This document shows, in pieces, positions 3,005 through 47,274 of a stretch of 64,000 bases of DNA. The translations under genes were made by a program, and so were the position numbers. Position 1 is the stretch's first letter, and every line of letters starts with the position of its first letter. The DNA lies in assembly GCA_964448285.1 (NCBI GenBank), contig CAYUWG010000013.1, forward strand, positions 10,970-74,969, written 5' to 3'. Below the pieces are notes generated by a model. That model did not search any database. It was not told where the DNA came from and was given only the letters and a program-made list of their open reading frames with translations. Source of the stretch: an uncultured Chromatiales bacterium (GTDB lineage Bacteria; Bacteroidota; Ignavibacteria; SZUA-365).

Positions 3005-3007
3005 CTA

Positions 3008-3844
3008 ATGCGCCCGAGCATAAAAGCTATTCCGACCTACAGCCTTCTAATTGTCTTTGGGTCTGTATTCTCCCTTCCAGTACTTTGGATGTTGTCTTCC
3101 TCATTACATGAATTAAAAGATATCTTCGTACACCCGTATCGCTGGATACCGTCCGTACTCCGATTTGAAAATTATGAGCGGGCAGTCACTCTGATGACAT
3201 TTTTGAGATATCTCATAAACACACTGATTATTACAATTCCAACGATCGTATTCACTGTCCTTTCGAGTTCCATAGTTGCGTACGGATTTTCACGATTAAA
3301 ATTCAAGGGTCGTGACAAACTCTTTGCGCTTTGTCTTGCTACGATGATGTTACCCGGTCAGGTGACGATGATACCGCTCTATATGGGTTATGCCTCGTTA
3401 GGCTGGGTTGATACATACCTTCCGCTGATCATCCCAGCATTGTTCGGCTCTCCATTTTATATTTTTCTTCTGCGTCAATTCCTTCTTACAATCCCGAAAG
3501 AATATGATGAAGCAGCATTGATGGAGGGAACGAGTCGTCTAAGGATATATTGGAGCATCATTTTACCCCAGGCGAAGCCAGCATTGTTGACGGTTGTCAT
3601 TTTCGCATTCATTGGCTCGTGGAATGACTTCTACGGCCCTCTAGTGTATATCAACTCACCTGAACTAGCGACACTCACGTTGGGACTCAATATGATGAAG
3701 ACACAGATACTCGGATCAGGAACCATCGAATGGAATGTTATGATGGCGGCGTCGATGCTTATCCTTCTGCCGAACGTCATAATCTTCTTTTTTGCTCAAA
3801 AACATTTTGTCACTGGTATCAACATCGGTTCATTGAGAGGGTAG
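3008..3844 (+). CDS. carbohydrate ABC transporter permease (MalG/UgpE-like)
   Basis: EAALMEGTSRLRIYWSIILPQAKPAL EAA motif and six predicted TM segments. Directly follows the first permease. Confidence 0.9.
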   Translation: MRPSIKAIPTYSLLIVFGSVFSLPVLWMLSSSLHELKDIFVHPYRWIPSVLRFENYERAVTLMTFLRYLINTLIITIPTIVFTVLSSSIVAYGFSRLKFKGRDKLFALCLATMMLPGQVTMIPLYMGYASLGWVDTYLPLIIPALFGSPFYIFLLRQFLLTIPKEYDEAALMEGTSRLRIYWSIILPQAKPALLTVVIFAFIGSWNDFYGPLVYINSPELATLTLGLNMMKTQILGSGTIEWNVMMAASMLILLPNVIIFFFAQKHFVTGINIGSLRG

Positions 3845-3851
3845 GATCCTA

Positions 3852-6511: not shown

Positions 6512-6516
6512 CATCA

Positions 6517-8553: not shown

Positions 8554-10850
8554 GTGGATCCGTATGGACGATTCCATTCGATGATATTGGGAACGGTGCG
8601 TCGATACTACAATTGTCTCGGGACATCGATGCACCGTGTATCGTCTCGATCGAATGCGACGCCGGGTTCTATCCGTTAGAGAAACACTTTCGGTATGCCA
8701 GGCATGAAGGGGGGAATGCACCCTACACGTTTTCGCATTTTGGTTTCTGCTCTTCACCACCAGGAATTCTCGTTGGACCATGGCCGGGATGGAGAGATAT
8801 CGAACAGATGCCGCGAGTATCTATCTCTTTTGCGGAGAAGCAGATTCCCGGTCAATACCAATTTTACGGTGATGAACTGGTGACACGAGTGCTGAACCTC
8901 ACATTTAGAGTAAGCGAGATGTGCGACCTAAAACCCGTCTTGCATATCAGTGATCATCGAATTCGTCCAACGAAATGTACGATTCGACGAGTCCCTGATA
9001 ATCGTACAATCCCGATAGCAGTATCGTTGATTGAAGAAATGCAGGGTATGCACCCACGTCTGTTTATCACACCAACGACTATAGATACCTTTTGGAACAG
9101 AGCGTTGACATCTCATCGCGAGCTCCATAATAGAATTGTGGAACTTCTCGATAACTGGGAACTGCCTCCTGATAAAACTCCGGAATCCAAACTTCCTGCA
9201 GGTCCGGAGCGGTTGTTCGCTGAAGACCGTGTTGTTCTCTCTGCACTACAAACTCTGCTGTTTCCTTCCGAACAGCATCTTGAAAGAGCGATCGATGCTT
9301 TGCTTGATTACGTAACTCTCACTCAACGAGATGACTATGAGCCGCTTCGGATAGATACGCAAAGTGGTGAGGTTCTTTTTACACTCTGTATCGGGTACGA
9401 CTGGCTCCATCGTGATTTGAATGACCATCAGAGATCGATCGTTGAGTCGCGTTTGAATGAAGTCGCACAGGTATGTTTGAATCATTTGCCGGAAACGAGA
9501 ACGGATTATGCGCAAGCACATTTTCTCGGTTGTGGATTGGGTTTGCTCGCGTACGCGTTTCTTCTTTGGGAAGATGATGCCATGGCGCCAAACCTTGCGG
9601 CGAGAATGAGAGGAGCGTTGGAGCGCGTGATCAACCTTCTTCCCGACGATGGATTCTTTCCACATGGAATCAATCTCTGGAGCTATGAACATGGTTTTCT
9701 CTTTCGATGGTTGGAATTATTTCGCTGTTGTACCGGCGAAAATCTTTGGGAGGGATTTCGATACTGGAAAAATGCCTCACGATTTCGCGCTTCTGTAACT
9801 TCGTCCGATTGGACGACCGCTATTACGTTAGGCGATCCACAGTATCGTGTCGGAGGCGATTCCTGGTGCCATGACCTGGTCGCGGCTCGAACGAAATCCC
9901 GGCAAGCTCAGTCACTCGCGAACGCATTGAGGGATCTGCCGGTCGATGGAGTGGATTATCGGCATGCTTCTGCGAGAAGGCGAGTGTGGGAATTTCTCTT
10001 TCACGATCCGGTCATCGAGCCTTATGAAAGGAATAATGGAATTCAGGTTTTCCATGATGGTGGACAAGTCAATGCCCGACATGGGAAAAGACTTGTCGTA
10101 TTCCGGAGCGGTGCACCGCTTGGAAAGAGCCGACGCGATGGCGGAGAGCTTGGAGCGTATGGCCATAGCGATCCAGGCAATGGCGGATTGCTCGTCCATG
10201 ATGGTGAGGACTTTATCCTGAGCGGTCCTGGACCGAGTTATTGGAGATCGACGTCTTTACACAACATTATCATCATCAATGGTAGAGGGCAATTCGGTGA
10301 TTCCTGCGTATGGCTACCGGATGTTTTTCCTGAGAGTGCCATTCCCGCTGAGCCGATAATTCATGAAAGCGAAGAATGTGTTTCTATTTTCGCCGAGCTT
10401 ACACGAGCGTATCTCCCCTCAGTTGGAGTCAAATCGTATGTTCGCGCACTGTTTATCGCTCCCGAAATCATCATTGGAGTCGATTCAATTTCGTTGAACA
10501 TACAGTCCGATATAGCACTGAATTTCCATTCATGGGGATCGTTCATACGAAATTCAGATGGAGTCTGGAGGATCAATGGAAAGAGCGAGAACTATGAGCT
10601 TCACTTTTTCTCCCGAACAGCTTTCAACGTAGAATGTGGTCTGACAGAGTTCGTCCCTGCGTACCCGCATAGCGGCACCAGAGATTCATTTCTACGGATG
10701 ACCGTTTTTGCTGATGAAGAATGCATGTGCTGGTTTCTCGGATCGGCGCCGATATCACGGCCCACCATCGTACATCGCAATGATCACATCCTGCTGACGT
10801 GCGGCAAGAGACACGTAAAGTTCAGCAGTGCAGGCTTGATGGAGTGCTGA
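8550..10850 (+). CDS. heparinase II/III-like (polysaccharide lyase-like) protein, tentative
   Basis: 766 aa. N-terminal helical region (ALLDYVTL..DWLHRDL), then ..GAYGHSDPGNGGLLVHDGEDFILSGPGPSYW, reminiscent of the H-x-H-x-D region of the Hepar_II_III C-terminal beta-sandwich. Assignment is weak. Confidence 0.4.
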   Translation: MSGSVWTIPFDDIGNGASILQLSRDIDAPCIVSIECDAGFYPLEKHFRYARHEGGNAPYTFSHFGFCSSPPGILVGPWPGWRDIEQMPRVSISFAEKQIPGQYQFYGDELVTRVLNLTFRVSEMCDLKPVLHISDHRIRPTKCTIRRVPDNRTIPIAVSLIEEMQGMHPRLFITPTTIDTFWNRALTSHRELHNRIVELLDNWELPPDKTPESKLPAGPERLFAEDRVVLSALQTLLFPSEQHLERAIDALLDYVTLTQRDDYEPLRIDTQSGEVLFTLCIGYDWLHRDLNDHQRSIVESRLNEVAQVCLNHLPETRTDYAQAHFLGCGLGLLAYAFLLWEDDAMAPNLAARMRGALERVINLLPDDGFFPHGINLWSYEHGFLFRWLELFRCCTGENLWEGFRYWKNASRFRASVTSSDWTTAITLGDPQYRVGGDSWCHDLVAARTKSRQAQSLANALRDLPVDGVDYRHASARRRVWEFLFHDPVIEPYERNNGIQVFHDGGQVNARHGKRLVVFRSGAPLGKSRRDGGELGAYGHSDPGNGGLLVHDGEDFILSGPGPSYWRSTSLHNIIIINGRGQFGDSCVWLPDVFPESAIPAEPIIHESEECVSIFAELTRAYLPSVGVKSYVRALFIAPEIIIGVDSISLNIQSDIALNFHSWGSFIRNSDGVWRINGKSENYELHFFSRTAFNVECGLTEFVPAYPHSGTRDSFLRMTVFADEECMCWFLGSAPISRPTIVHRNDHILLTCGKRHVKFSSAGLMEC

Positions 10851-12997
10851 CGCGGCAATTCAATTTCGGTTCTCTTGTAGATCAGGGTTGCTGGATTTCC
10901 TATGATCGTGTCAATGCGTTTTTATCGCTGGATGGCGTGAAGGAAATCGGTTATCATGGACGGCAACCGGTCAGTAAAAACTCACGGGTCCTGGTATCGC
11001 AACACGCTGTTTTGAGTTTTGAATATCGTCCCAAGGGAGAAACGGGAAAAGCGCTGCGCTTCGACCAAGTGGAGTGGTCGCCATCGAACGTCATTACTGA
11101 GTCGATCGATGGACCTTCGATTCGAATGACCACAAAACACAGAAGCTTGGGAATTCAGGTTCGAAACACCGCGCACAAAGACATCGAATTCGTCATTCAT
11201 TTTCACCGTGCCTCATGTCACGCGGAAATACACGGGGAAAGGTTCTGGTCACAACCGGTTGTCCATGGATCGGAGATCACAATGCATTTTCGTGACAGGA
11301 TCATCTTGCACGATTGGTTGAAAAGAACCGGGCCGTATGCTGGTGATTTTCTTATTCCCGAACCTTGGCGCAGAGTGTTGTTCGTAAGACCCATCGTATC
11401 TGGAAATGCAACGATCGACGATGTGAAGTCGGAGTATAGGGAATCGCTCGTGCCGCTTTACGATGTGACAACGTACATGAAACTTGGTGGCAGTCATTAT
11501 CGACCCAAGGTGTTGGACGACGTGATCAGTTTCTCCTCGTCGATAGAGCCATCCGATACTGTGGAGTTTCATGTTGCCTTTTCCGATACCGAGGCGAACA
11601 GTCATATCGGTATTGTAACGGAACATGAACGAATGCAATCCGATCGTGATGCACCGCAGTTGACCCTGGAAGGATTTTCGCACATAGAACGATTCTTCTC
11701 AAACGTTCCAGACTTGATTGATTCATGCCGTGTTACGGATCTTGGAATGACTCGTGCGAGCGCAGGTGCGTACTACTGGATTTGGGCATGGGACAACATC
11801 ATCACCGCGATGGAGTATCCCCGATGGAGCGCTCTCGGTCCGATGGAACAGACGGTCGAATTTTTAAACGCTCATCGTGATGTGAACGGTCTTATTCCTA
11901 TGCGATGGACTCGCGATCTGCTGCCACTCGATACCCCGGCGCGCGGTGGTTTGGAATCACTCTTCGGAATCCTCGTCCATAATCTTCTCCTCAATGGCGG
12001 TTCACGACAATATATTCTGTCTGCTTATCCGTTTCTTGTTACGCACCTCGATGAGACCACGAACATGACGGATGAATACGGGCGGTTCAGGTCGTTAGGC
12101 TTCTATCCGGATTTACCCCTGCGGCTTGGCAGAACCGAAAATTCCGCCGTTGCGATGGAATGTGCGTTGCAGTATGCATTCTGTCGTGCTTTGTCGAAGG
12201 TCGCGATGGAAATAGGTGATGATGCAGTGTCAGAACGTTCACGAATTGCCGCCGCGCGGATACATCGTTTTTTCCTCGAAAATTTCTGGTCGCAACAGTA
12301 TGGCTTCGTGTGTGATTCAATCGATGTCGTGACGAATCAGCAATTGGAAAGCTTTCCTCTCTACTCATTTGCATTTCTGCTCTTGCCGGAGGCGATCGAT
12401 TTGCTTCAGGATCGGGTGGCGGACATTGCAAACGTCATCGAACGGAACCACCTCACGCCGAATGGTATCAGGACGGTTCCATCCTGGGATAGAAACGCTC
12501 ATACCGAATCAGTCATGTCTGCATGGTATCCGTGCTGGGATTTTGCAGCGGTGAAATTCCTTCGTCAAGCCGGTCGCTCGGAAGCAATCATGCATTGGAT
12601 GAACAGCGTGGAGGAGACTCTTCAGCATTTCGGTTACTGTCCGGAGTTTCTCTCGATGGATAATTTCGATGCTTCTGATATCGGCTCATGGAAACGTCAC
12701 GGTGCGGCGTCCAATCTCAATTGCGTCACCGGATGGTTTCGAGCTTTGATAGAAGGATTGACCGGCGTTGAGTTTCACGCGAATGGACTAACCGTAATGC
12801 CGTGCAAACTTCCCATAAACGAATTGGAACTCAACGGTATTCATCATCTTCAGACGGTGTGGCGTATCACCGTTATAAATGGTGAAGGTGAAACGTGTCG
12901 GCTTGAAATAGACGGCGAACAGTTGCAATCTCTCGATGTGAGCAGACGGTATTTCGACGGTAATGCTCGCCATCTAACAATCCGCTACGGGTCGTGA
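10799..12997 (+). CDS. six-hairpin (alpha/alpha-toroid) glycoside hydrolase-like protein, tentative
   Basis: 732 aa. The region GAYYWIWAWDNIITAME...GLESLFGILVHNLLLNGG resembles the catalytic (alpha/alpha)6 domains of GH63/GH78/GDE-type enzymes. True start may be internal, since the first 52 nt overlap the previous ORF. Confidence 0.4.
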   Translation: MRQETRKVQQCRLDGVLTRQFNFGSLVDQGCWISYDRVNAFLSLDGVKEIGYHGRQPVSKNSRVLVSQHAVLSFEYRPKGETGKALRFDQVEWSPSNVITESIDGPSIRMTTKHRSLGIQVRNTAHKDIEFVIHFHRASCHAEIHGERFWSQPVVHGSEITMHFRDRIILHDWLKRTGPYAGDFLIPEPWRRVLFVRPIVSGNATIDDVKSEYRESLVPLYDVTTYMKLGGSHYRPKVLDDVISFSSSIEPSDTVEFHVAFSDTEANSHIGIVTEHERMQSDRDAPQLTLEGFSHIERFFSNVPDLIDSCRVTDLGMTRASAGAYYWIWAWDNIITAMEYPRWSALGPMEQTVEFLNAHRDVNGLIPMRWTRDLLPLDTPARGGLESLFGILVHNLLLNGGSRQYILSAYPFLVTHLDETTNMTDEYGRFRSLGFYPDLPLRLGRTENSAVAMECALQYAFCRALSKVAMEIGDDAVSERSRIAAARIHRFFLENFWSQQYGFVCDSIDVVTNQQLESFPLYSFAFLLLPEAIDLLQDRVADIANVIERNHLTPNGIRTVPSWDRNAHTESVMSAWYPCWDFAAVKFLRQAGRSEAIMHWMNSVEETLQHFGYCPEFLSMDNFDASDIGSWKRHGAASNLNCVTGWFRALIEGLTGVEFHANGLTVMPCKLPINELELNGIHHLQTVWRITVINGEGETCRLEIDGEQLQSLDVSRRYFDGNARHLTIRYGS

Positions 12998-14784
12998 TGT
13001 TCGAGCCATTGCTCGAAAATCTCGATGCATGGATAGAGACGGAGACAGATTTGCTTCGCTTCCGCTCAGAAGATTTTAAAGACAATTCAAATGCACAAAA
13101 ACGTGGTGTCGATTTTCGTCGGTCGATAGCGATGCTTACTGATCAGGAAGCGATGATCGGCTGTGAGCTAACCAATGCCTCGAATGATGATATCAGAGTG
13201 AGACGCATAGCAGCGTTCGATTACGCACCGGACTGGGTTACTGATGGATTGCTTACTGTATCGAGTCAGACATGCGTCATCACATTTCCCGCAGAGCGTG
13301 CTTATGGTTACGACGGATCACATTCCGTGACCGATAATCAACCGCTGGTTTCATTCTGGTGGCTTGCGATCCACGACCCGCGAACAGAGAGAAATGTATG
13401 CATGGGAGTGATCTCACCGCCTTCGTCACTCGTCCGGTTTCACATTACTCCGCTGCTGTCTTCGACGGAATCGAAGCGCGTCTTGCGTGTGCGTTGTGAG
13501 ATGGATTGTTTGAGTGGAAGGCGCGGTGTCAGGCTTTCACGAAAGGAAGCTTTCACACCGGGCGAGATCTATCTTTCAACATGGGAAGGGAGATACAATT
13601 CCGGAATGAGAAGAATGGCGGAACGTATGCGAGAGCGCATTCAGCGAAAGCCGAATTCGACGCCGAAGGTTGCGTGGTGTTCATGGTATGCGGGTTACGA
13701 GTCGAATATTACGGAGAGCGAAATAGATGTAAACATGACGAACGCCCACGCCATCGAAGGACTTGATACCATCCAAATCGATGACGGATGGACTTCCGGA
13801 AATGGGTCGCGAAAGCTTGGCGAAATAGAAATCGATCAAGCGAAATTTCCGTCCGGTATGAGCGCTCTTGCTGCACGCATCCATGCAAAGGGATTCCATC
13901 CGGGAATTTGGTTGCGCCCATTTCAGCGATGGGAGTCGAACGATGCACCGACGTGGGCGAAAGACACCTTCGACCTCTCGCATCCCGACGCGTTGGCGTG
14001 GTTAAAAGCGCTTTCATCGGCGATTGCGGGATGGGGATATGATTACCTGAAGATCGATTTTCTGACGTACGATTATTTCGAAAGCTGGGGGATGGAATTG
14101 CTTGACATGCGCGGAATTTCATTTCATCCATACGACGATACAATCACCAATGTACAGATGTACGGAAACGGTTTGCGAGCATTGAGAGAGGGATTTGGTG
14201 ATGAACGTTTTCTGCTCGGGTGTAATTGTCTTCTCGCCCCTGCCCTTGGAATCGTGGATGGGATGCGGATCGGTGATGACGTGAGTGCAGGCAACTGGGA
14301 AAGAACGTTCCTGATGGGTGTACGCTCGGTTGCCCCGTTGCAATTTCTTAATCGACACGTTTGGTGGAACGATGCGGATTGCATGTTTACGCATGAACCT
14401 TTGACCATTCGGCGAGCAACGTTGTGGAATAACTTTGTCGCCTTTGCGGGAGGATTGCGCGTTCTCAGCAGCAAGCTCCACGACTTGGATGAAAAGCGAC
14501 GAGTACTGATCAATGATGCGTTGCGCATGACTTACGGTGCAACGTTACCGTTGGATTTTCCCGAACATGATGTCCCGTCGTTGTGGTTGAAAAAAAACGA
14601 GTCGGGGGCCACTCTCGGAGTTTTCAATTGGTCGGAGGAAACGCAGCAAATCGCGGTCGCTGAGTCCAAGCTCGATGGATGGATTTTCTCGGATGAAGAG
14701 AAGAACATGGTGGGTGATGGTGTTCACAGGTTCGAGCTTGAATCGGAATCATTTTGCATCGTGCCTTTAGTCGAACGATCATGA
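12994..14784 (+). CDS. alpha-galactosidase (clan GH-D, GH36/GH27-like)
   Basis: CSWYAGYESNITE...LDTIQIDDGW...KFPSGMSALAARIHAKGFHPGIWLRPF...YDYLKIDFL carries the melibiase/alpha-galactosidase catalytic-domain hallmarks (DDGW, K-x-D nucleophile region). Confidence 0.75.
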   Translation: MMFEPLLENLDAWIETETDLLRFRSEDFKDNSNAQKRGVDFRRSIAMLTDQEAMIGCELTNASNDDIRVRRIAAFDYAPDWVTDGLLTVSSQTCVITFPAERAYGYDGSHSVTDNQPLVSFWWLAIHDPRTERNVCMGVISPPSSLVRFHITPLLSSTESKRVLRVRCEMDCLSGRRGVRLSRKEAFTPGEIYLSTWEGRYNSGMRRMAERMRERIQRKPNSTPKVAWCSWYAGYESNITESEIDVNMTNAHAIEGLDTIQIDDGWTSGNGSRKLGEIEIDQAKFPSGMSALAARIHAKGFHPGIWLRPFQRWESNDAPTWAKDTFDLSHPDALAWLKALSSAIAGWGYDYLKIDFLTYDYFESWGMELLDMRGISFHPYDDTITNVQMYGNGLRALREGFGDERFLLGCNCLLAPALGIVDGMRIGDDVSAGNWERTFLMGVRSVAPLQFLNRHVWWNDADCMFTHEPLTIRRATLWNNFVAFAGGLRVLSSKLHDLDEKRRVLINDALRMTYGATLPLDFPEHDVPSLWLKKNESGATLGVFNWSEETQQIAVAESKLDGWIFSDEEKNMVGDGVHRFELESESFCIVPLVERS

Positions 14785-18844: not shown

Positions 18845-18895
18845 ATTCAATGGAGCACCTTGCGCGAGAGAGCGTCGTTGTTTTGGTTGCTATGC
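18845..18895 (-). repeat. terminal partial attC-like site (R''/L'' half only), end of cassette array
   Basis: gagagagcgtcgttgttttggttGCTATGCgatg closely matches the stop-proximal half of the other inter-cassette elements (gagcgccgtgttgccgtttGCTATGCgctcg). It sits 13 nt 3' of the restriction-endonuclease stop. No matching core-proximal half is present. Confidence 0.4.
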
Positions 18896-18908
18896 GATGT
18901 GGTGGCGT

Positions 18909-19598
18909 TCAGCCTCGTTCAAGTCGCTGAATCTCGCTGTTGATCTGAATGAGCACTTCGGGATTGCCGATCTCCCCGTCTAGACTGAAAACAATGAAAA
19001 CCTTTCCGCCATACGTTTGAGTAAATTCTTCAAAGCTGGCTTTCATGCGCTCGGAGAGCGAATACCCACCGAAATTTGCTTTTGCGGTAACAGGTTTGAT
19101 TTGAATCCCGAAAGCCTTGTCTCCTACCCATCCTAAGTAGTCTATGTCCCCCGCATGATCCAGTTGAGGCGATGACTCTTCAAACGTGATGGATGGAAAC
19201 TTCTTGCTCAGACCATCAGTGACGACGGACTTCTCAGTGACATAACCGTCGTAGGTACGGTTAATTGTGAGATTGTAAATGAAATCGATGCAGTCGTCGA
19301 GAGTTAGTGTTCGGAATGCCTCTTGCCATTCCGGAATAAGGAACTCGGTAATCTTGGTATACAGCCGTTCACCAAGCTCTTGCAAACTTTCCTTTGTAAC
19401 CTTGTGCGGAACCTTCGTTTTTGTATGAGCGTGCTCAAAGTACCACTGTTCCCATTCCTTGAATGTCTTGGGTTGACACTCCCTAATGAGAGCCATTACC
19501 TCGCCGACCTTGTGTGTCTTTGTAAGACCCCATTTCCCATTCGCATAGTTCAAGACCATTTCTTTGGTCCCAAAATCCTTGGAGTATTTTTTAGGCAT
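18909..19598 (-). CDS. putative type II restriction endonuclease (PD-(D/E)xK-like), partner of adjacent methyltransferase
   Basis: 229-aa ORF starting at ATG 19598 (track start 19673). ATG overlaps the MTase stop by 8 nt (ctgcATGCCTAA), i.e. translational coupling. Candidate D...(Q/E)xK element GDIDYLGWVGDKAFGIQIKP. Confidence 0.45.
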   Translation of the reverse strand: MPKKYSKDFGTKEMVLNYANGKWGLTKTHKVGEVMALIRECQPKTFKEWEQWYFEHAHTKTKVPHKVTKESLQELGERLYTKITEFLIPEWQEAFRTLTLDDCIDFIYNLTINRTYDGYVTEKSVVTDGLSKKFPSITFEESSPQLDHAGDIDYLGWVGDKAFGIQIKPVTAKANFGGYSLSERMKASFEEFTQTYGGKVFIVFSLDGEIGNPEVLIQINSEIQRLERG

Positions 19599-20904
19599 GC
19601 AGTCCTGATGTTGGCTGAATAATAGTGAAGGCGAGAAACTTGTCCTTGTATTTGTAAGTGCGAACAACGTCAACGTTAACGAAGCCTGACTTGATCAAGT
19701 GTGCGTTCAGGAATGTCTTATTCTTGAGGTAAACGTAGGACAACAGAATCCCGTTCTCGTCATGTTTGTCCTTGTCGAATCTCAGGAAGACCCTCTGACC
19801 CTTCATCTTGGAATTCAGGAACTCCATAGCCTCTTCTCGACGTCTTGGCTCTTCGGCTACTCCAATAAGCCTGATCGTAAGCCCGTTGTTGAGTTTGAGA
19901 AGTTCAGGGCTGAGGATCTCCGTTACGTTATACAACTCGGCTCTTTCTCCATTATCGCCGTTCTCGATCTTCGAGCCGAACTTCAGCTTTCGAGGATCAA
20001 CCTTCTTGTCCAACTCGTGCGGGTCAGTAAACCTGTATGGAAGGGATTCAATGTCCTTGTCTAAGTTCTCGTGTGCCTGTTGTTGAGTAACGAAATCACA
20101 GGAGGCATCACCGAATATATCATGCTGGGAAATCTTCAATTTATTCTTGATAATTGGAGCGAATGAAGGGTTTATTTCATAGCCGATGGAATTCCTGCCG
20201 AGGTTCTTTGCGGCAAGCGATGTCGTTCCGCTTCCAAGAAAAGGATCAAGGACGGTATCGCCGACGAATGAAAACATTCGAATCAATCGCCGGGGAAGTT
20301 CTTCGGGAAACATTGCTAAGTGCTTGTCTTGGCGTTCGCCAGCAAAGTTCCAGTGCCCGGCAAAATAGGTATTCCATTCGTCTGTTGTGAGTTTGGAAAG
20401 TTCCTTCATCTCTTTGCTGACTTTTGGCGGGTCACCTAACTTCTTGAATATGAGAATGAACTCGTAATCAATCTTCAGGATGCCATTTCTTGGGTAAGGA
20501 AATGAACCCATTATTGAGGCACCACCGGTCGTGTTGGTTGTCGTTACCTTTTGCCAAATAATGGCGCCCATGTAGTCCATTCCGATGGTCTCACAGAACT
20601 TAGTAATCTCCGTCCTAATCGGGATAACCTTGTAACGCCCGTAATAAACGGAGCGGGCGAACTGGTCGCCGATATTGATGCAAAGCCGGCACCCTTTATG
20701 GAGAACCCGAGAGGACTCCTTCCACACAAGATTCAGATTGTTGATATAGCTTTCGTACGTATCGTGAAAGCCTATCTGTTTCTCGTCCCCATAGTCTTTG
20801 AGTTGCCAGTACGGCGGCGAAGTGATAACAAGGTGAACGGATTCTGCTGCGATTTCTGTCATTCGCCTTGCATCGCCGATTACTATTTTGTGATGGGTGG
20901 CCAT
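19591..20904 (-). CDS. beta-class N4-cytosine/N6-adenine DNA methyltransferase fused to a C-terminal SNase-like (thermonuclease-fold) domain
   Basis: Motif IV VITSPPYWQLKDYG precedes motif I VLDPFLGSGTTSLAAKNLGRNSIGYEI (beta-class order). C-terminal ~140 aa (LTIRLIGVAEEPRRREEAMEFL...YVYLKNKTFLNAHLIKSGFV) aligns with the staphylococcal-nuclease fold. Start moved to ATG 20904 (MATHHKIVIGDARRM). Confidence 0.85.
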   Translation of the reverse strand: MATHHKIVIGDARRMTEIAAESVHLVITSPPYWQLKDYGDEKQIGFHDTYESYINNLNLVWKESSRVLHKGCRLCINIGDQFARSVYYGRYKVIPIRTEITKFCETIGMDYMGAIIWQKVTTTNTTGGASIMGSFPYPRNGILKIDYEFILIFKKLGDPPKVSKEMKELSKLTTDEWNTYFAGHWNFAGERQDKHLAMFPEELPRRLIRMFSFVGDTVLDPFLGSGTTSLAAKNLGRNSIGYEINPSFAPIIKNKLKISQHDIFGDASCDFVTQQQAHENLDKDIESLPYRFTDPHELDKKVDPRKLKFGSKIENGDNGERAELYNVTEILSPELLKLNNGLTIRLIGVAEEPRRREEAMEFLNSKMKGQRVFLRFDKDKHDENGILLSYVYLKNKTFLNAHLIKSGFVNVDVVRTYKYKDKFLAFTIIQPTSGLHA

Positions 20905-20976
20905 ACTTCCTGAACCAATGTACTGAATCTCAATCACATTTGCTGGTTCTTTGCGCAAGAGAAACGCCACCAGTTC

Positions 20977-21266
20977 ACCTAATGCTCAGCGCAAGTACGC
21001 CGCTGTTATTGCCGTTCAGGAACGATACGTCGGAAGCCGCTTCGACGCATTTCTTCGCTGTTGGAACCACAAACCAATCCGTGAGCAAATCCGTTGAGTA
21101 GCCACAACTATCCTTCCTAAGCTTCAACCAAGCCATATCAACAAGTGAGCGCCGTTGTATTCGCTGCTTTGTGCCTTGTGCCTTCTACCACAACTTTACA
21201 TTTAGCCAAACCTTCATTCAACATCGCCAATAAAACGTGCGAGCGCCGTGTTGCCGTTTGCTATGC
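20977..21266 (-). repeat. attC-like inter-cassette element A (contains an internal tandem duplication of the stop-proximal arm)
   Basis: Left end ACCTAAT is a degenerate complement of the GTTAGGT core. The body has two tandem copies of ..accacaact..catatcaacaagtgagcgccgttg... Right end GCTATGC lies 28 nt before the rsgA stop. Similar to elements B, C and D. Confidence 0.5.
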
Positions 21267-21294
21267 GCTCGTGAGCGGCGGCCGCTTAGGTCTA

Positions 21295-22371
21295 TCAAGA
21301 CGAAGGTTTTCGCTTCTTAAGCTGTTCCACTGCAGTCTTTATCATTCGCCCAAATTGCTTGTCCTTCTTGCGTCTTTCGACGTAGGTCATCTCGTGGAAT
21401 TGGGATTCCCTGATCAATTTCATGTAACTCCGATACTTAGCTTCGCTTAGAGAGCCACTCTGAACCGCCACTAAGATCGCACAACCGACTTCGACAGAGT
21501 GCGTGCAATCATTGAACCGGCAGCGGTTCGAAAGTTCGTGGATATCAGAGAAACTGTCGTCAATACCGACGCTAACGCCCATCAATCCCAGTTCCCTCAT
21601 GCCTGGAGTGTCAACCAAAAGTGCTCCGCTGTTTAGGACTGTCATCTGTCGGCGCGCCGTCGTATGTCTTCCTCTGCTATCCTTTTCACGAACGGGATTC
21701 GTTTCGAATGCCTCGCAACCGAGAAGATGATTGAGAAGTGTGGTTTTGCCCACGCCAGAGGACCCAAGCAAGCAATATGTTTTGCCATGTTGCAGAGCCT
21801 GCCTGACTCTGTCGAGGCCCGTTTCAGTTTTGCTGCTGAATGCGATGATCCTTGTATTGATTTGTGCGTCTCGGATATCTGATATCCGTTTCTCCAATTC
21901 CTCGGCGCTGATGAGATCGCTTTTGCTAAGCAAAATGACAGGCTCGACATGGCCTTCATTGACCATTACGAGATATCGCTCCAACCGGCGGAGGTTGAAA
22001 TTGAGATCGCACGATTGCATGATGAAGGCGACATCGATATTCGAAGCGATCATCTGGTATTCAACTTTGTCACCGGCGGACTTGCGACGCAAGAAGGTTC
22101 TTCTTGGGAACATGTCATGAATGATTGCGAGTGTGCCGTCATTGTGGTACTGAACGAATACCCAGTCCCCGACGCATGGGAGCTCCTGGGTTGAGTCGGC
22201 AGAATAGAGGAGCTTGCCCGTTGGCTCCGCTTGAACTTCATTGTGCTCGTCGCGAACGAGGTATCGGTCTCTATCGACTCTTGTGACGCGCGCGATAGTG
22301 CAGTCTTGTAACGCAAGCCCCGCACGTTTCTCTTCAAACCAATTATCAAATCCGAGATCTTCTAGCTGCAT
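21295..22371 (-). CDS. rsgA: ribosome small-subunit-dependent GTPase A (RsgA/YjeQ family), cassette-borne copy
   Basis: N-terminal OB fold, circularly permuted GTPase with G1 LLGSSGVGKTTLLNHLLG and VDTPG, and a C-terminal zinc finger CRFNDCTHSVEVGC. Confidence 0.85.
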   Translation of the reverse strand: MQLEDLGFDNWFEEKRAGLALQDCTIARVTRVDRDRYLVRDEHNEVQAEPTGKLLYSADSTQELPCVGDWVFVQYHNDGTLAIIHDMFPRRTFLRRKSAGDKVEYQMIASNIDVAFIMQSCDLNFNLRRLERYLVMVNEGHVEPVILLSKSDLISAEELEKRISDIRDAQINTRIIAFSSKTETGLDRVRQALQHGKTYCLLGSSGVGKTTLLNHLLGCEAFETNPVREKDSRGRHTTARRQMTVLNSGALLVDTPGMRELGLMGVSVGIDDSFSDIHELSNRCRFNDCTHSVEVGCAILVAVQSGSLSEAKYRSYMKLIRESQFHEMTYVERRKKDKQFGRMIKTAVEQLKKRKPSS

Positions 22372-22416
22372 TTGGTGTCCTAAGTATAGTCAGTAAACAA
22401 GGCCGCTGCCCATGGC

Positions 22417-22619
22417 GCCTAACATTTAGCGCAAGGACGCCACTGTTTTTGCCTTTCAGAAATGCCGCGCACGGAGCCGCTATCAATAGACTAATTTCTT
22501 GCGGCGAAGTGCGCATACCAACTTGCGGCAAAAACCGTTGAGCGACCACAACTATTTTTCCCCACAGCTTTAACTGAGCCATATAAACAAATGGGGCGGC
22601 GTGGTTACGCCTGTTATAC
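22417..22619 (-). repeat. attC-like inter-cassette element B
   Basis: Plus strand begins GCCTAAC (complement of the canonical core GTTAGGC) 45 nt upstream of the rsgA ATG and ends GTTATAC 28 nt before the peptidase stop. The arms are mutually complementary (gcgcaaggacgcc / ggcgtggttacgc). Confidence 0.55.
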
Positions 22620-22646
22620 GAAAAATGCCACAAAGCCTTTCTCATT

Positions 22647-24065
22647 CTAATAGCGTTTCACGATGTCATCAATGGAGACTCCTTCAATCAGGAGTTGAGA
22701 AGATTCTATTCCATAGATCCACTCTTGGAAGAAATCACGAAGATCCCGGCTCGAGACGCGCTCGCAAAGTTTATAAAACTCTTGAAAGTTGATGACGCGA
22801 CCTTTGAACTCCAGAAGCATGGTTCGAATGATCGTCCTAAAGGTGCTTTCTCCAACGAGGCGATACAAAACATACAGGGACCAGGCGCCCTTCGTGTACG
22901 AATGCCTGCCGAGTTCTTTCGCCCCGTAGCCGGCAATCGGCGTTTCAAAAACTTGTCGGTCATACTCCGCCCATCGCACAAAGAGATCTCGACTCTTTTC
23001 CATGTCTTCCTCAAAAGCTGCCTCACCGCGAAATGCCCGGATTGCCAGAGCCTCAAAAAACGTCGCAAACGCCTCGTCGAAGTACCGACACCGCTGCACA
23101 TCTGCCGACGGTGTCGCATTCCATGAGTGTCCGATCTCGTGATAGGCTTCGGAAATTCTCGTACTGTCTTTGAATGCGGCCGCCGTTTGCAGGAAGTAGT
23201 AGTCGCTGGCTTGCGAACCCCATCCATCCGGAATTTCTATAATGGAATATCCCTTGAAGCTTTCGGGTAAGCCGAACATTTCGCTATAGAGCTTGATGAC
23301 GTCTTTCGAGGCGTTCATGACTAACCTCGCTCCGATGCTGTCCTCAGGCAGGTGATACACAACGAGTTGATCGGTCGGATTACTCAGAACTGTGAACTTT
23401 GCCACGGCAACGTCGATGCGCCACGTTGGTATCTTGCTTCGGAATACGAACGTTGCATTCTCTGAGTCGATCTGTGAATCGACCAACTCTCCCCCGCAGG
23501 CCGCACGGTAATCCGCCGGAACGGTTGCGGTTACTTCGTATGTGAATTTCGTGTCATTGGACGCTAAGGTACTGGCGAATGTCGGCTTGGCAAGGATCGG
23601 ATAGGCAAACGCGTCGGGACGTAGTAGAGAGTAGTTCTCATCTATCCGGTCCCTAACGTATGCCATCACTTCCGGATATCCGAAGATGAATCCATCGTAT
23701 TCCAAGACAACGGTCGTCGTGTCGTTAGGTCGAAGCGGAGTACGAAGGTTGACGATAACTTCTCTGGCCTGAAGAGAAGGTTCATCACGAAGTTGACCGA
23801 TATCCTGTTTGAAGTGGAGCGGTGTGCCGGTGCGATCGCTTACCTGTTTAACTTCAAGCAATCGGTACAGCAGAAAGGGGAGTTGCGCGTGTGGCTGATC
23901 GGTGATATTGCGTATTGAAAGCGTTGCCAAAATGGAGACGCGCTGCTCTCTGAGGTGAAATTGCACATTGAGTTTGTAGTGCACAACGGCAGGAAGGTCT
24001 GAAGCAGTCGCCGAAGTCATTTCGCAAAGAGAAACAAGTACAGTGATAAGGAATAGCCTTCTCAT
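22647..24065 (-). CDS. secreted M1-family-like gluzincin metallopeptidase
   Basis: Signal peptide MRRLFLITVLVSLCEMTSATA. HEIGHSWN...(18 aa)...E zinc-binding HExxH-x18-E motif. Start taken at ATG 24065 with an aaaggag RBS; the track start 24095 is TTG. Confidence 0.7.
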   Translation of the reverse strand: MRRLFLITVLVSLCEMTSATASDLPAVVHYKLNVQFHLREQRVSILATLSIRNITDQPHAQLPFLLYRLLEVKQVSDRTGTPLHFKQDIGQLRDEPSLQAREVIVNLRTPLRPNDTTTVVLEYDGFIFGYPEVMAYVRDRIDENYSLLRPDAFAYPILAKPTFASTLASNDTKFTYEVTATVPADYRAACGGELVDSQIDSENATFVFRSKIPTWRIDVAVAKFTVLSNPTDQLVVYHLPEDSIGARLVMNASKDVIKLYSEMFGLPESFKGYSIIEIPDGWGSQASDYYFLQTAAAFKDSTRISEAYHEIGHSWNATPSADVQRCRYFDEAFATFFEALAIRAFRGEAAFEEDMEKSRDLFVRWAEYDRQVFETPIAGYGAKELGRHSYTKGAWSLYVLYRLVGESTFRTIIRTMLLEFKGRVINFQEFYKLCERVSSRDLRDFFQEWIYGIESSQLLIEGVSIDDIVKRY

Positions 24066-24099
24066 GTGTCGGGCTCCTTTCGTGTCAATTTTCAAATGA

Positions 24100-24295
24100 C
24101 GTTTGCAGCAACAACGTAGCGGTTTATGCCGCTCAAAGATGAGCGCCGAAGGGAGCTATCAAAGGACCAATTCTCGGCGCGCGTAGGCGCAAGACCAACA
24201 CGCGGCAATAACAATGGATAGACCACAACGACCTTTTCCATAGCCTTAACTGCGCCCTATCAACAAAGGGAGCGCCGGTGTTACTGCTGTTATGC
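24100..24295 (-). repeat. attC-like inter-cassette element C (core-proximal 7-mer apparently deleted)
   Basis: Right end GTTATGC (24289-24295) contains the TAA stop of the HNH gene on the opposite strand. The body is similar to element B. At the left end, the cataacgt found at the same position in element D is missing (aatgacg---tttgcagc). Confidence 0.5.
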
Positions 24296-25189
24296 GTTCG
24301 TTGGTTTGCCGCGCTTCTTCCATTGTTCCTTCTTGAGCCTCTTCTCGAGTCTCTTGTGGCATCTGTCGTGTAAAAGGATAGCATGTGTAAGATCGTCAGT
24401 CTTACCACCTTTGGCGTGCGGAATGATGTGATGTGATGACGAATCACCAAATCGCATCTGTTTGCCGCATTCGCCACACAGTCCATTTTGGCGAAAAAAA
24501 AGAAGTCGTTTTTGCTCAGCATCATGCAGTCGGTCGGGGTCCCTGACAATAATGGGGTGAAGCCTTTTGAATTCTTCTATCATGATCCCAAGGCGATTTG
24601 TCAATGACTCAGAAGTTGTCAAGATTTTCGACTCTTGCTTGAACTGCTTATATCGTGAGAACAATTTTTTGGTCATGCCAGGTGGTGGGTCAACCTCGTA
24701 GAGCGAGAAGCTATTAAGGTTTCTTAGAAATTCCTTGCCAAATTCGAACAACTCATTTAACAACTGTGAATTGTCAGCACGCTGCTTTCTGAGCCATGAT
24801 ACAAGCAGATAGAAAGCAATCGATTCCCTGGGTGAGAAGGCCGTAAGCATCAGGTTGAGAGATGAATGAAGAACATCTAGATTGCCGATGAAGGCTTTGA
24901 CCTTCTTTGCAGGAATCTTCTTTTGGTATGACTTGACCCCCTTGACAAGCGTGTGGAGTTCTAGGTCAGGGAAGACTCTTCTTTGAAAATCACCTTCAAG
25001 TTCGATTAGCAGCATCTCGGCGGCAAGTTGTCTCCACCTGAATCGTTTGTCTTTTCCAAGAAGTGTAAAGAACTTATGTGTCTCACGGGTGTTCTTAAAG
25101 GTATCTTTGAATAGACCGCGATGAGCGCTGATCTTTTCTGCCTTGTTAAGTGGTGTGCCTTCCCTGTAAGCGTAGAAAGGTTTGAACAA
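24290..25189 (-). CDS. HNH endonuclease domain protein (DUF1524-like), C-terminal half of a GmrSD-like type IV restriction module
   Basis: GLCGECGKQMRFGDSSSHHIIPHAKGGKTDDLTHAILLHDRCHKRLEKR is an HNH motif. Overlaps the upstream DUF262 ORF by 44 nt in another frame. Confidence 0.7.
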   Translation of the reverse strand: MFKPFYAYREGTPLNKAEKISAHRGLFKDTFKNTRETHKFFTLLGKDKRFRWRQLAAEMLLIELEGDFQRRVFPDLELHTLVKGVKSYQKKIPAKKVKAFIGNLDVLHSSLNLMLTAFSPRESIAFYLLVSWLRKQRADNSQLLNELFEFGKEFLRNLNSFSLYEVDPPPGMTKKLFSRYKQFKQESKILTTSESLTNRLGIMIEEFKRLHPIIVRDPDRLHDAEQKRLLFFRQNGLCGECGKQMRFGDSSSHHIIPHAKGGKTDDLTHAILLHDRCHKRLEKRLKKEQWKKRGKPTNA

Positions 25190-25589
25190 TGTCTTCTTCC
25201 TTGCTCTCTGGATCGTGACTTTTCAGCTTCAAGTAGAATACGCAGTATGCGTCAAGTAGAGTCTTGTCTGGAAAGTCTAGATGAGAGTACTTGGTAATGT
25301 CCGTATCATCAAGGTCGAGTTTATCCAATAGGTAGTTATGGATAGCGAGTAGTCTCTGTTGACCGTCCAAAACCTCATACTGGCCGTGTTCGTTCACAAA
25401 AAGGACAAGGACACCTATGGAATAACGATTAATGATGGACCTGATAAGCTCGATTTTCTGGGAGTGTTTCCAAATATCCCCCCGCTGGTACTCCTGGTTG
25501 ATGAAAATCTTTCCGGCGTCGAACAACTTTGGGATTTGGGCAAGGACGAACTTGTCAAAGTGTATGTCAGGAACAGTTTGTTTAGGCAT
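25146..25589 (-). CDS. DUF262 (ParB-like nuclease fold) protein, N-terminal half of a GmrSD-like module
   Basis: Conserved VLDGQQRLLAIHNYL (the DGQQR motif of DUF262). 147 aa, shorter than a complete DUF262 domain. Confidence 0.7.
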   Translation of the reverse strand: MPKQTVPDIHFDKFVLAQIPKLFDAGKIFINQEYQRGDIWKHSQKIELIRSIINRYSIGVLVLFVNEHGQYEVLDGQQRLLAIHNYLLDKLDLDDTDITKYSHLDFPDKTLLDAYCVFYLKLKSHDPESKEEDIVQTFLRLQGRHTT

Positions 25590-25628
25590 AGTTCCTCAGT
25601 AGTCTAAGTCAAGCGGCAAACCAATGAC

Positions 25629-25755
25629 GCATAACGTTTTGCAGCTACCCGAAGGTTTTAGAAGCACTAAACTGTCAATCTGCACTAAAGCTGAATAGAA
25701 GCACGAACCTTCAATTAACCACGTCACCGCCACTTTTGGGTAGGTGCTGTTATGT
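25629..25755 (-). repeat. attC-like inter-cassette element D (127 bp, best-preserved palindrome)
   Basis: Plus strand GCATAACgttttgcagCTACCCgaagg ... GGGTAGgtgctGTTATGT. The arms are reverse-complementary (L'/L'' gcagctaccc / gggtaggtgctg). It ends 12 nt before the stop of the 153-aa gene and 39 nt before the DUF262 ATG. Confidence 0.55.
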
Positions 25756-25768
25756 GTAGTTTTTCTTG

Positions 25769-26185
25769 TCATTCGTCAATCTGAATTTCATAGGTCTTAC
25801 CATCTTCTCCATATACTGTTGCAGTACCATCTTCATCAATATCAGCATATGAAATATGGTCTTCGTTTAAGTAGCCGTCATTTGGGAAGTTAATTTGAAC
25901 GACTTGACAGTCTTGAACATCAACGTCAAGCGTGTATGTTGCAGAGTATCCTGTTTCAGGATTATTGTAGTCGACAGTTGCTGAATAAGTTCCATCTTCA
26001 AATTTACAGTCTGATTTATACTCACTTGTTCCATCGCTCTCATCATTATTTTCATCTTCATAATCAGACGAATTTGAATATGAACTTGAATTATCGCTTC
26101 TTTTTTTGTTCTCCGATTTCGAGGAGCAAGAAGACATTTGACTAATTAAAGTCAGAAAGCAAATAAAAATTATTGTCTGTTTCAT
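25769..26185 (-). CDS. small acidic lipoprotein (hypothetical)
   Basis: Signal peptide MKQTIIFICFLTLISQMSSCSS (lipobox). D/E/S-rich mature region. Gene is AT-rich. Start chosen at the internal ATG that begins the signal peptide. Confidence 0.5.
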   Translation of the reverse strand: MKQTIIFICFLTLISQMSSCSSKSENKKRSDNSSSYSNSSDYEDENNDESDGTSEYKSDCKFEDGTYSATVDYNNPETGYSATYTLDVDVQDCQVVQINFPNDGYLNEDHISYADIDEDGTATVYGEDGKTYEIQIDE

Positions 26186-26192
26186 AAATATA

Positions 26193-26615
26193 TTATTCAA
26201 ATATTTTGTCATACCATTTGGATACGTCATCCCTTATTAAATCGTAATACTTGTAAATTATTAATGCTAAGTCGAAGTCAGCACGTTTGGCTTTATACTC
26301 GTTTACTGTAAAGTATCCATAAAAATTACCTTCTTTGTCAACAACAACAGGCGGATTAGTCCCATAAGCATTCCAAGGCGAATTTGAATTATATTCATTG
26401 CCATATGTTCCGTATTCATTCCAAATGGATTTTGAATTATAGCTATTTCCATAGGTTCCATATTCGTTCCATATAGAATTATTATCATAGCTATTGCAAT
26501 TTAAGCAACCAAGATATTCATCGTGATTCTGTCCGCCATATAAGTGCAAAGTTTGAGCATACGTTGTTGTCTCAAAAGCAACAATTAGAAAAAGAAAAAA
26601 AAGTGTTTTGTTCAT
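26193..26615 (-). CDS. small secreted protein with SIWNEYGTYGN tandem peptide repeats (hypothetical)
   Basis: Signal peptide MNKTLFFLFLIVAFETTTYAQ. Three tandem repeats SIWNEYGTYGN(S/E)YNS. AT-rich. Start at the internal ATG. Confidence 0.5.
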   Translation of the reverse strand: MNKTLFFLFLIVAFETTTYAQTLHLYGGQNHDEYLGCLNCNSYDNNSIWNEYGTYGNSYNSKSIWNEYGTYGNEYNSNSPWNAYGTNPPVVVDKEGNFYGYFTVNEYKAKRADFDLALIIYKYYDLIRDDVSKWYDKIFE

Positions 26616-26700
26616 ATTCTTTCGTTTTACTGGTTCGTTAAAATTACACATAACTACCGTAAGTACGAACACCTTCGCATATACTGCCAATATAGGCGGA

Positions 26701-26720
26701 TAAACGAACATGTTCGTTTA
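26701..26720. repeat. perfect 20-bp palindrome TAAACGAACATGTTCGTTTA overlapping the intI-fragment stop codon
   Basis: Read directly from sequence: 9-bp arms and a 2-nt centre. Located between the recombinase fragment and the first cassette. Candidate recombinase-binding/attI-like site or terminator hairpin. Confidence 0.5.
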
Positions 26721-27251
26721 TTTCGATCCTGTAAGAACAGCCGTGTCTAATGGACTGACGATCTTGCCAAGCGACTTCTTGCTTACGTGCGTATAATTCT
26801 CCGTCGTCTTCGAGCTGGCGTGACCGAAGAGTTCCTCTATGTACCGGAGGCCAGTCCCGGCTTCCAGAAGGTGTGTCGCAAAAGCATAACGCCGGCTGTG
26901 AACTATGACTTTCTTGCGAATCCCCGCAGCAGCGACAGCCCGCTCGAAGACGTACTGGACACTCCGTTCCGACAAGTGCTTCCTGCCGTCCGCGCCTTCG
27001 AACAAGTACTCCATCGGCTGGCAGGTACAGAAAGACTCGCGCAACGGCTCCGAGGCAACGTAGGAGAGAAGGGAGTACATGTCCTTTATTCCTTTCGAGC
27101 CATGCAGGTGCAGGAGCATTCGTTTGCTGTGGCTGTGTTTCCTCAACCTCATCTCTCTCTCCACTGTCTCGAAAAACTTGTCGGCCATGTGTGGCCCCTG
27201 TGCAGGTTCAACAATCAGTTGTTGCAACGTTACGGAAAGAGTCACTTTCAA
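26718..27251 (-). pseudogene. 5'-truncated tyrosine recombinase with integron-integrase-like C-terminus (intI remnant)
   Basis: Catalytic C-terminal region HSRRYAFATHLLEAGTGLRYIEELFGHASSKTTENYTHV (HxxR...Y), followed by VSPLDTAV as in IntI1 (VRSPLDAL). GSKGIKDMYSLLSYVASEPLRESF is comparable to IntI1 [23 protein letters not shown]. Only about 177 aa are present, with no N-terminal domain and no upstream ORF. Confidence 0.65.
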
Positions 27252-47273: not shown

Positions 47274-47274
47274 C

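Follow-up and report, generated by a model that had tools for sequence, protein, structure and literature searches.

RsgA (also called YjeQ or CpgA) is a GTPase of late 30S ribosomal subunit maturation, known from Escherichia coli (b4161; PDB 2YKR, 5NO2 and 5UZ4) and Bacillus subtilis (1T9H), and it is one of the closest known systems to the gene analyzed here. It is regarded as a core factor of ribosome biogenesis that is inherited vertically, and canonical RsgA proteins of different phyla are approximately 30–35% identical. Here we describe an RsgA-like gene located in a 64,000-nucleotide stretch of DNA, referred to below as the window, from an uncultured Chromatiales bacterium (GTDB lineage Bacteroidota; Ignavibacteria; SZUA-365; GenBank assembly GCA_964448285.1, contig CAYUWG010000013.1, forward-strand positions 10,970 to 74,969). 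Our analysis suggests that the encoded protein is probably an accessory, functional paralog of RsgA, whose gene moves in the form of an integron-type cassette.

Complete integrons have previously been reported in Ignavibacteriae (PMC9024848), and defence cassettes are among the reported contents of chromosomal integrons (bioRxiv 10.1101/2024.07.02.601686). Moonlighting has been reported for CpgA (PMC6449344). A named example of an RsgA paralog is “rsgA2” of Lactobacillus plantarum (lp_1687), for which only the gene name is given (PMC7278804). We found no paper linking RsgA with integron cassettes, or dealing with what accessory RsgA paralogs do.

Assignment to the RsgA Family

The protein encoded by ORF 21295..22371 matches the Pfam family RsgA_GTPase (PF03193) at 1.5e-48 (165.3 bits, cut-off 30) and passes the cut-off of the NCBIfam model TIGR00157 (166.8 bits, cut-off 100), while structures of E. 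coli RsgA are matched over residues 83–321 (4e-34). Its GTPase motifs follow the circularly permuted order, with G4 (SKSD, residues 149–152) preceding G1 (GSSGVGKTT, 203–211) and G3 (DTPG, 254–257), and they are followed by a zinc motif of the C-x4-C-x-H-x5-C type, CRFNDCTHSVEVGC (residues 284–297), that pairs with CKYRDCKHDTDPGC of E. coli RsgA. All three G motifs and the zinc motif are unchanged across 13 relatives, and the RsgA/YjeQ identity that an earlier, first-pass annotation had read from the permuted motifs and the zinc finger is borne out. A Pfam scan of the protein returned no match to the RsgA_N domain; five beta strands are placed between residues 23 and 83 of the N-terminal region by a low-confidence AlphaFold model (13 close relatives, pLDDT 45.6), which is unreliable.

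On the two equivalog models of canonical RsgA the protein falls far short of the cut-offs (NF008931, 170 bits versus 360; NF008932, 104 bits versus 483). The RsgA family, broadly taken, includes this protein, which is however distinct from the canonical ortholog. Purifying selection acts on the gene (dN/dS of 0.09–0.15 against five relatives), and these values show it to be functional.

The Gene as an Integron-Type Cassette

The organization of the cassette is best read from locus L009 (JGI 3300037137, the same contig as L098; the loci compared with the window are designated by L numbers), where an RsgA-like gene 89% identical to that of the window lies within a textbook attC array. Six sites, each of the form GCCTAAC-AAAC-GGCAAACCG ... 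CGGTTTGCC-TAAAC-GTTAGGC, are found there between unrelated small ORFs. The stretch from TTAGGC to the ATG start (GCCATGGGCGGCGGCCCTTGTTT...AAGGACATCAAATG) is the same in L009 and in the window, and the attC bodies upstream of it are of different types. The sequence shared by the window and arrays of the L009 type begins precisely at the TTAGGC of the G|TTAGGC box. On the 3′ side of the gene, the window sequence TGATAGACCTAAGCGGCCGCCGCTCACGAGCGCATAGCAAACGGCAACAC... is collinear with TGATGGACCGAGTCGGCCGCCGCCCACGAGCGCCTAACAAACGGCAAACC... of L009. The leader that follows GTTAGGC is common to L009/L098, L097, L100, L101, L102 and L103, and degenerate versions of it are present in L004, L010, L012, L034 and L111. 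The cassette comprises the TTAGGC of an R′ box, a conserved leader of about 50 nucleotides with an AAGGA ribosome-binding site, the 358-codon gene and its own attC.

The canonical arrangement, in which the ORF precedes an attC whose R″/R′ and L″/L′ boxes are paired, is found in L009/L098, L097 and L100–L103, and the window keeps only the 5′ half of this site. A canonical attC model, constructed from 12 sites of related arrays and 161 positions long, matches the window once (nhmmer, 21265–21193, E = 3.6e-13). This match is confined to model positions 2–74, indicating that the attC of the RsgA cassette has been reduced to its 5′ half, which is fused to the next repeat, site A. The sites here called A, B and C are copies of about 210 nucleotides, all in the orientation of the gene (nhmmer with a model of these copies, E-values between 1e-60 and 1e-66). 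Such repeats were not found elsewhere in the 64 kb outside the array at 18.9–27.3 kb, and Rfam returned nothing there; tRNA scans gave nothing relevant either. When other loci were searched with a model built from the window’s own repeats, only same-species matches and weak matches in L009 were obtained. In the conspecific strain L008, site B is 98% identical and its R″ box is the canonical GCCTAAC. The attC-like elements that had been noticed on both sides of the gene are real and correspond to the repeats A and B, the GTTAGGC box upstream and the 5′ attC half downstream.

Movement Between Arrays

Within the metagenome clade of 83–89% identity, both canonical boundaries are present at six of eight loci (L097, L098, L100–L103), which have other neighbours or lie at array ends. 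The boundaries are degenerate yet recognisable in L010/L011 (86%) and L004 (87%), where the gene again has different surroundings (an S41 peptidase gene comes next in L010 and is followed by its own GCATAACAAACGCCAAACC), and boundary boxes are still discernible at 66–71% identity (L034, L110–L112). The neighbours of the gene vary among the window, L008, L009, L010, L004, L097 and L100–L103. The gene is contained in each of the four conspecific samples that were recovered (L001, L002, L003 and L008); the species occurs in SRR5011273, SRR23136762-64, SRR24941436 and SRR22452311/13. One of these, L008, is 98.3% identical to the window from site B through the RsgA-like gene, the restriction-modification (R-M) pair and the TonB gene, and carries a NucS-like gene upstream instead. 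The breakpoint between L008 (1–930) and the window (22600–22650) falls within R″ of site B (GCCTAAC versus GTATAAC) and not in R′, and homologous exchange within an attC therefore fits better than an integrase crossover.

Comparison of these loci argues for carriage of the gene on an integron-type cassette, whose G|TTAGGC edge, untranslated ends and attC travel into arrays with other neighbours. This agrees with the integron-like cassette proposed by the first-pass annotation. No integrase genes were detected within the 4–10 kb flanks of the RsgA loci.

Horizontal Spread of the Gene

Scanning one genome per species, we found RsgA-like matches at 508 places in 185,579 species genomes, with identities that ignore taxonomy and extend over at least 12 phyla. 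The highest values belong to metagenome-assembled genomes (MAGs) of Ignavibacteriota/Bacteroidota (64–86%), followed by Krumholzibacteriota (69%), Chloroflexota and Dehalococcoidia (56–63%), and Acidobacteriota and Bacillota (61%); lower values were obtained for Thiotrichaceae, Nitrospirales, Desulfobacterales and Clostridia (52–53%) and for Ignavibacterium, Melioribacter and Ignavibacteriaceae (50–52%). Many of the copies are on contigs of 0.2–4.6 Mb. Among the Ignavibacteriaceae copies there is no synteny, except between two Melioribacter species, and several of them lie in same-strand runs of unrelated ORFs.

The cleanest line of evidence for horizontal spread is, in our view, the comparison of relative rates between malate dehydrogenase (MDH) and the RsgA-like protein. 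MDH is normally far more conserved than RsgA. Among 5.8 billion proteins, the MDH of the host has no relative above 74% identity besides same-species matches, whereas the RsgA-like protein has more than 40 clusters at 85–90% identity. Full-length relatives are also present on 192 plasmid or secondary-replicon records, at 34–41% identity, while alignments of canonical RsgAs with the window protein start only at residue 60–82, approximately, and reach 29–32% identity. Two matching places occur in one Bacillus record of this plasmid set and three in one Nonomuraea record. The copy on a Vibrio alginolyticus plasmid, which lies in an array of VCR-type attC sites, scores 242 bits against the window protein, 249 against a Nostoc plasmid copy and 144 against E. 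coli RsgA. Matches annotated as E. coli “plasmids” were rejected as cases of co-occurrence of both rsgA types, as they represent canonical rsgA, at least partly on chromosome-size records.

These comparisons suggest, with a good degree of likelihood, that the gene is an accessory, horizontally spread paralog of RsgA, and they do not fit its vertical inheritance as the housekeeping copy of the host lineage. Of the two origins that had been offered for the gene earlier, a paralog is a better fit than the capture of the lineage’s own housekeeping rsgA, given the clade shared by plasmids and integrons of different phyla and the far closer relatives that the gene, compared with MDH, has elsewhere.

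Several further observations were made on the relatives. The plasmids of Vibrio alginolyticus (L177, 3140–6026) and Shewanella aestuarii (L179, 3140–6026) carry a GNAT / HTH / rsgA-like module of identical layout, which in Vibrio is located between VCR-type attC repeats. In an Ignavibacterium MAG (L074, 2085–2131 and 3240–3286), a 141-codon ORF with the same N-terminal start sequence is found upstream of the RsgA relative and is probably a truncated tandem duplicate. In Ignavibacteriales of low GC content, RsgA relatives of 354 amino acids are preceded by the element AAACTTCAACCCTTCGCACGxATGAAGCTGACGAGGAAATA, with a CTTCA/TGAAG stem (L006, 9900–10000; L022; L061), and in L061 the same element also occurs 3′ of the gene.

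The Array and Its Recombinase

The RsgA-like gene is the fourth of five cassettes in a chromosomal array whose genes, between 27.25 and 18.9 kb, all share the minus strand (Table 1). Read along that strand, the array opens with a tyrosine recombinase remnant and two lipoprotein-like ORFs; a GmrSD-like gene split in two and a gene for an M1-peptidase-like protein come next, ahead of the RsgA-like gene and, in last place, a type II methyltransferase/endonuclease pair. The array is bordered by a DUF2279 gene on one side and a TonB-receptor gene on the other. The GC content of the RsgA-like gene (0.50; GC at third codon positions, GC3, 0.57) is below that of the genes right of the array (GC 0.53–0.57; GC3 0.61–0.75). 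The 18.9–27.3 kb region around the gene, an accessory array, is likewise lower in GC than the core on its right.

The recombinase of the window is an internally deleted copy of a protein of about 284–300 amino acids, with 384 nucleotides missing relative to L091. Its full-length relatives pass the cut-off of NF040815, “site-specific tyrosine recombinase/integron integrase” (226–236 bits, cut-off 220), and remain below that of TIGR02249, “integron integrase” (222–242 bits, cut-off 265), which they match in two stretches skipping profile positions 179–232, approximately. Compared with IntI1 (approximate sequence), they are 33–36% identical, share the C-terminal SPLD and lack about 41 residues at the IntI additional domain. 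This domain is considered necessary for attC recombination. In the window, L091 and L093 the recombinase is co-oriented with the cassettes. The layout of the attI-like region (palindrome, second half-site, GTTATG) is common to L091 and positions 26648–26720 of the window. In L093 (chromosome OY969888.1), the recombinase is followed by an attI-like site and at least eight attC sites on the same strand, whose L boxes differ in sequence and keep 7/7 complementarity, a structure-preserving variation typical of attC. A recombinase of this type (window 26718–27251; L091 10001–10855; L093 10001–20200) may represent an integron lineage with an ancestral-type integrase.

The conspecific loci L091/L181 have an intact recombinase at the same chromosomal site and a different first cassette. 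They are 98.1% identical to the window over 10 kb of core flank, with identical MDH proteins, and only 78.7% identical over the 3′ half of the recombinase and attI. In the alignment of window 26642–27188 with L091 10001–10932, identity is 98.1% through the first 58 nucleotides of the recombinase, followed by the 384-nucleotide gap and then by 78.7%. This junction looks like a recombination joint importing a foreign array, rather than the result of simple decay.

As the co-oriented IntI-like recombinase lacks approximately 130 residues, the array would be frozen and its attC sites decaying. The attC of the RsgA cassette is halved and joined to the next site. By its sequence features, the element of the window appears to be a decaying integron-like chromosomal array, not a classical integron.

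Table 1. Features of the array and of the RsgA-like gene in the window.
Feature	Position	Strand	Remarks
IntI-like tyrosine recombinase remnant	26718..27251	−	177 codons; 156-aa product from 27188; without residues ~19–149; conserved box HSLRH>HSRRY
attI-like region	26648..26720	−	Palindrome TAAACGAACATGTTCGTTTA, second half-site, crossover box GTTATGT 26648–26654; collinear with region 3′ of intact integrases in L091, L093
Cassette 1: two lipoprotein-like ORFs	25769..26615	−	GC 0.33
Site D: canonical attC, 127 nt	25629..25755	−	R″ ACATAAC, L″ CCTACCC, L′ GGGTAG, R′ GTTATGC
Cassette 2: GmrSD-like type IV restriction gene, split	24290..25589	−	DUF262 ORF 25146..25589; HNH ORF 24290..25189
Site C: attC-like repeat 3′ of GmrSD-like cassette	24090..24299	−	
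Cassette 3: secreted M1-peptidase-like protein, 482 aa	22647..24095	−	PF01433, 7.8e-10; another gene here in strain L008
Site B: attC-like repeat of preceding cassette	22397..22621	−	R″-like GTATAAC, partly complementary L boxes, TAAAT, canonical R′ GTTAGGC
5′ end of RsgA cassette	22372..22423	−	R′ box GTTAGGC 22417–22423 (crossover G|TT), then leader GCCATGGGCxGCGGCC..TTGTTT..AAGGA..ATG
RsgA-like circularly permuted GTPase gene	21295..22371	−	358 aa, ATG start; intact ORF
Coding segments of RsgA-like gene		−	G4 21916–21927; G1 21739–21765; G3 21601–21612; zinc finger 21481–21522
5′ half of the attC of the RsgA cassette (R″-L″ and inner block)	~21187–21270, feature 21193..21266	−	Degenerate R″ GCATAGC; truncated, fused to site A
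Site A: attC-like repeat preceding R-M cassette	20960..21173	−	Degenerate R′ ATTAGGT 20977–20983
Last cassette: type II R-M pair	18909..20970	−	N4/N6 methyltransferase and MjaI-like endonuclease; PADLOC MTase_II 600 bits, REase_II 311 bits
Terminal half-site, array end	18869..18897	−	CGCATAGCAAC..GACGCTCTC; precedes convergent TonB-receptor terminator

Additional observations concern the other cassettes. The methyltransferase (19591–20970) has a C-terminal staphylococcal-nuclease-like domain (PF00565), and its MTase_II match in PADLOC (600 bits) is full-length. The DUF262 and HNH ORFs of the GmrSD-like gene overlap by 44 nucleotides in different frames, with the same calls in samples L001 and L094; the arrangement represents either a pseudogene with a frameshift or a variant made up of two genes. 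The first cassette (25600–26650) has a GC content of 0.33 compared with about 0.55 for the genome, and one of its ORFs contains three 48-nucleotide repeats (26359–26502) encoding units of the WNEYGTYGN type.

Alternative Explanations

At the level of sequence comparison, family membership, cassette anatomy, inter-array mobility, horizontal spread and purifying selection are all documented by the results above. Several points nevertheless weigh against an accessory RsgA paralog moving as a cassette. Its biochemical role is deduced from homology alone. No second rsgA is present in the 64-kb window, and this copy could be the only one of the genome. The adjoining recombinase is without the IntI-specific domain, and the platform is for this reason not a classical integron. 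Sites A, B and C are degenerate and unmatched by the canonical attC model; folded as wholes they are no more stable than shuffled sequences (z = 0 to −1.1), which rules them out as simple attC hairpins and leaves the attC case to rest on comparison. Finally, relatives of 50–80% identity are mostly without a strictly detectable adjoining attC: among the metagenome loci at least 6 of 64 have one downstream and at least 7 of 69 upstream, and among the species genomes 1 of 80 downstream. The strict detector, which was home-made, recovers site D and five of the six sites of L009 and misses degenerate sites (false matches occur about once per 2 kb with relaxed R-box rules and about once per 7 kb with stricter ones); the values of 6/64 and 7/69, two to five times those expected by chance, are therefore lower bounds. 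With so few relatives adjoining an attC, the RsgA-like family is not exclusively cassette-borne.

Under one alternative, the gene would be the sole, working housekeeping rsgA of the genome, found in a cassette array by chance or having replaced the native copy after capture. The gene is indeed intact, under purifying selection, above the equivalog cut-off of TIGR00157 and present in the four conspecific samples; relatives of 75–78% identity occupy ordinary chromosomal contexts without attC (L005, L006), and no other rsgA occurs in the window. We nonetheless consider this explanation unlikely, given identities that disregard taxonomy across at least 12 phyla, a core gene (MDH) without close relatives where RsgA has many, the occurrence of the same cassette in different arrays, the grouping of the clade with plasmid-borne copies and not with canonical E. 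coli RsgA, and scores of 170 versus 360 and 104 versus 483 on the canonical equivalog models. That the gene is an ordinary chromosomal one, flanked by a genome-wide intergenic repeat (of REP or MITE type) or a regulatory RNA, is extremely improbable. The length (about 210 nucleotides) and weak overall structure of sites A, B and C, to which the canonical attC model is blind, would be compatible with such repeats, but within the 64 kb they are confined to the array and terminate in GTTRRRY-type boxes, site D is canonical, the half-site 3′ of the gene matches canonical attC sites, an IntI-like recombinase and an attI-like site stand at the head of the array, and Rfam finds nothing.

That a GmrSD-like gene and an R-M pair of type II share the array also calls to mind a defence island, in which the RsgA-like protein would be an anti-phage or abortive-infection effector shutting down the 30S subunit; plasmid-borne relatives are likewise found beside restriction genes, for instance on Nostoc pCC7120gamma, and chromosomal integrons are said to stock defence cassettes (bioRxiv 10.1101/2024.07.02.601686). 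However, this paper mentions neither GTPases nor ribosomes, and the best matches of the protein in PADLOC-DB 2.0 (E 0.0017–0.005, that is, above 1e-3) cover P-loop regions only and amount to noise. In addition, the gene forms a single-gene cassette whose neighbours are different in every array, and the nearby R-M and GmrSD-like genes are separate cassettes. Matches in a phage collection, considered as phage-borne RsgA copies, were rejected because they resemble fragments of host DNA. The recruitment for defence or translation interference that the first-pass annotation had entertained is therefore not sustained, and we consider a defence role very unlikely.

Predicted Function and Significance

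For the accessory paralog that we favour, retention of the zinc finger, of all three G motifs and of a putative beta-rich N-terminal domain implies that the protein most likely binds the region of the 30S decoding centre and hydrolyses GTP as RsgA does. Under some stress, the host could thereby gain an additional or alternative activity in late 30S assembly or its checkpoint. A canonical rsgA is probably present elsewhere in the genome, with the window copy being additional, and transcription would presumably occur by read-through from upstream of the array. It is also conceivable, and in our opinion quite unlikely, that the clade represents a mobile ribosome-targeting adaptive factor and not a spare assembly factor. 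It would then either shield or rescue the decoding centre of the 30S subunit from toxins or aminoglycoside-like antibiotics, by analogy with protection GTPases of the Tet(M) type, or deliberately block the 30S subunit during infection or stress; if true, this would constitute a new class of translation modulators that are exchanged horizontally.

An RsgA-like gene that is full-length, maintained by selection and accessory in its behaviour, in the form of a self-contained cassette recurring across arrays, would add a translation-machinery paralog to the known integron cargo and provides a concrete, clonable candidate for probing accessory RsgA paralogs. For integron specialists, the interest lies in canonical attC arrays beside a co-oriented IntI-like recombinase without the domain thought to be needed.

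Other Features of the Window

Left of the array, a sugar-uptake and glycoside-hydrolase operon (276–14784) has a GC content of 0.45–0.50 and GC3 of 0.45–0.53, below the genes right of the array, and may itself have been acquired. Degenerate 7-nucleotide units (GGCTGAT / GGGTATG / GCGTATG, with periods of 14 and 21) are present at 47237–47437, at the 3′ end of a TPR histidine-kinase gene. Between two minus-strand genes (49866–50543), a unit of about 313 nucleotides is repeated approximately 2.2 times, with two copies 98% identical, and each unit begins with the G/C palindrome-like motif CCCCCCTTGAGGGGGGCAGGGGGG.

Comparison With Known Systems

A housekeeping translation GTPase has mobile paralogs in the Tet(M)/Tet(O) ribosomal protection GTPases. 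Their likeness to the gene described here is conceptual only, consisting of a core ribosome-binding GTPase paralog found on mobile elements; there is no sequence relationship, and antibiotic protection is without evidence here.

With RsgA/YjeQ/CpgA, the window protein has in common the permuted GTPase core, the C-terminal CX4CXHX5C zinc finger, a putative beta-rich N-terminal domain and matches to TIGR00157 and PF03193 above their cut-offs. It is 32% identical to E. coli RsgA over 259 residues and can be aligned with canonical RsgAs only over residues 83–321, approximately, differing from them by the N-terminus LxxLGFxxWF and by a basic C-terminal tail of about 35 residues. Genes of the window type are also horizontally mobile, on integron arrays and plasmids, in contrast to canonical RsgA and its stable chromosomal context.

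Like cassettes of sedentary chromosomal integrons and CALIN elements (IntegronFinder terminology; Cury 2016; Néron 2022, PMC9024848), the gene is a promoterless single ORF followed by attC (R″-L″...L′-R′), with a G|TTRRRY boundary, in a same-strand array of strain-variable content. Differently from sedentary chromosomal integrons, three of the four full-length attC-like sites of the window (A, B and C) are degenerate, and site D alone is canonical. Differently from a classical integron, the recombinase is about 290 amino acids long, co-oriented with the cassettes instead of divergent from them, without the IntI additional domain (I2 helix) and, in the window, internally deleted.

The plasmid and second-chromosome “rsgA” paralogs of Vibrio, Shewanella, Nostoc (pCC7120gamma), Rhizobium, Listeria and Brevibacillus are known by annotation only. 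They align with the window protein over residues 1–355 at 34–41% identity and share with it the N-terminal LGW/LGF..F signature; they reside on accessory replicons, with the Vibrio alginolyticus copy inside a VCR-type attC array. Unlike these paralogs, the Ignavibacteriales clade takes the form of a single-gene cassette with its own type of attC.

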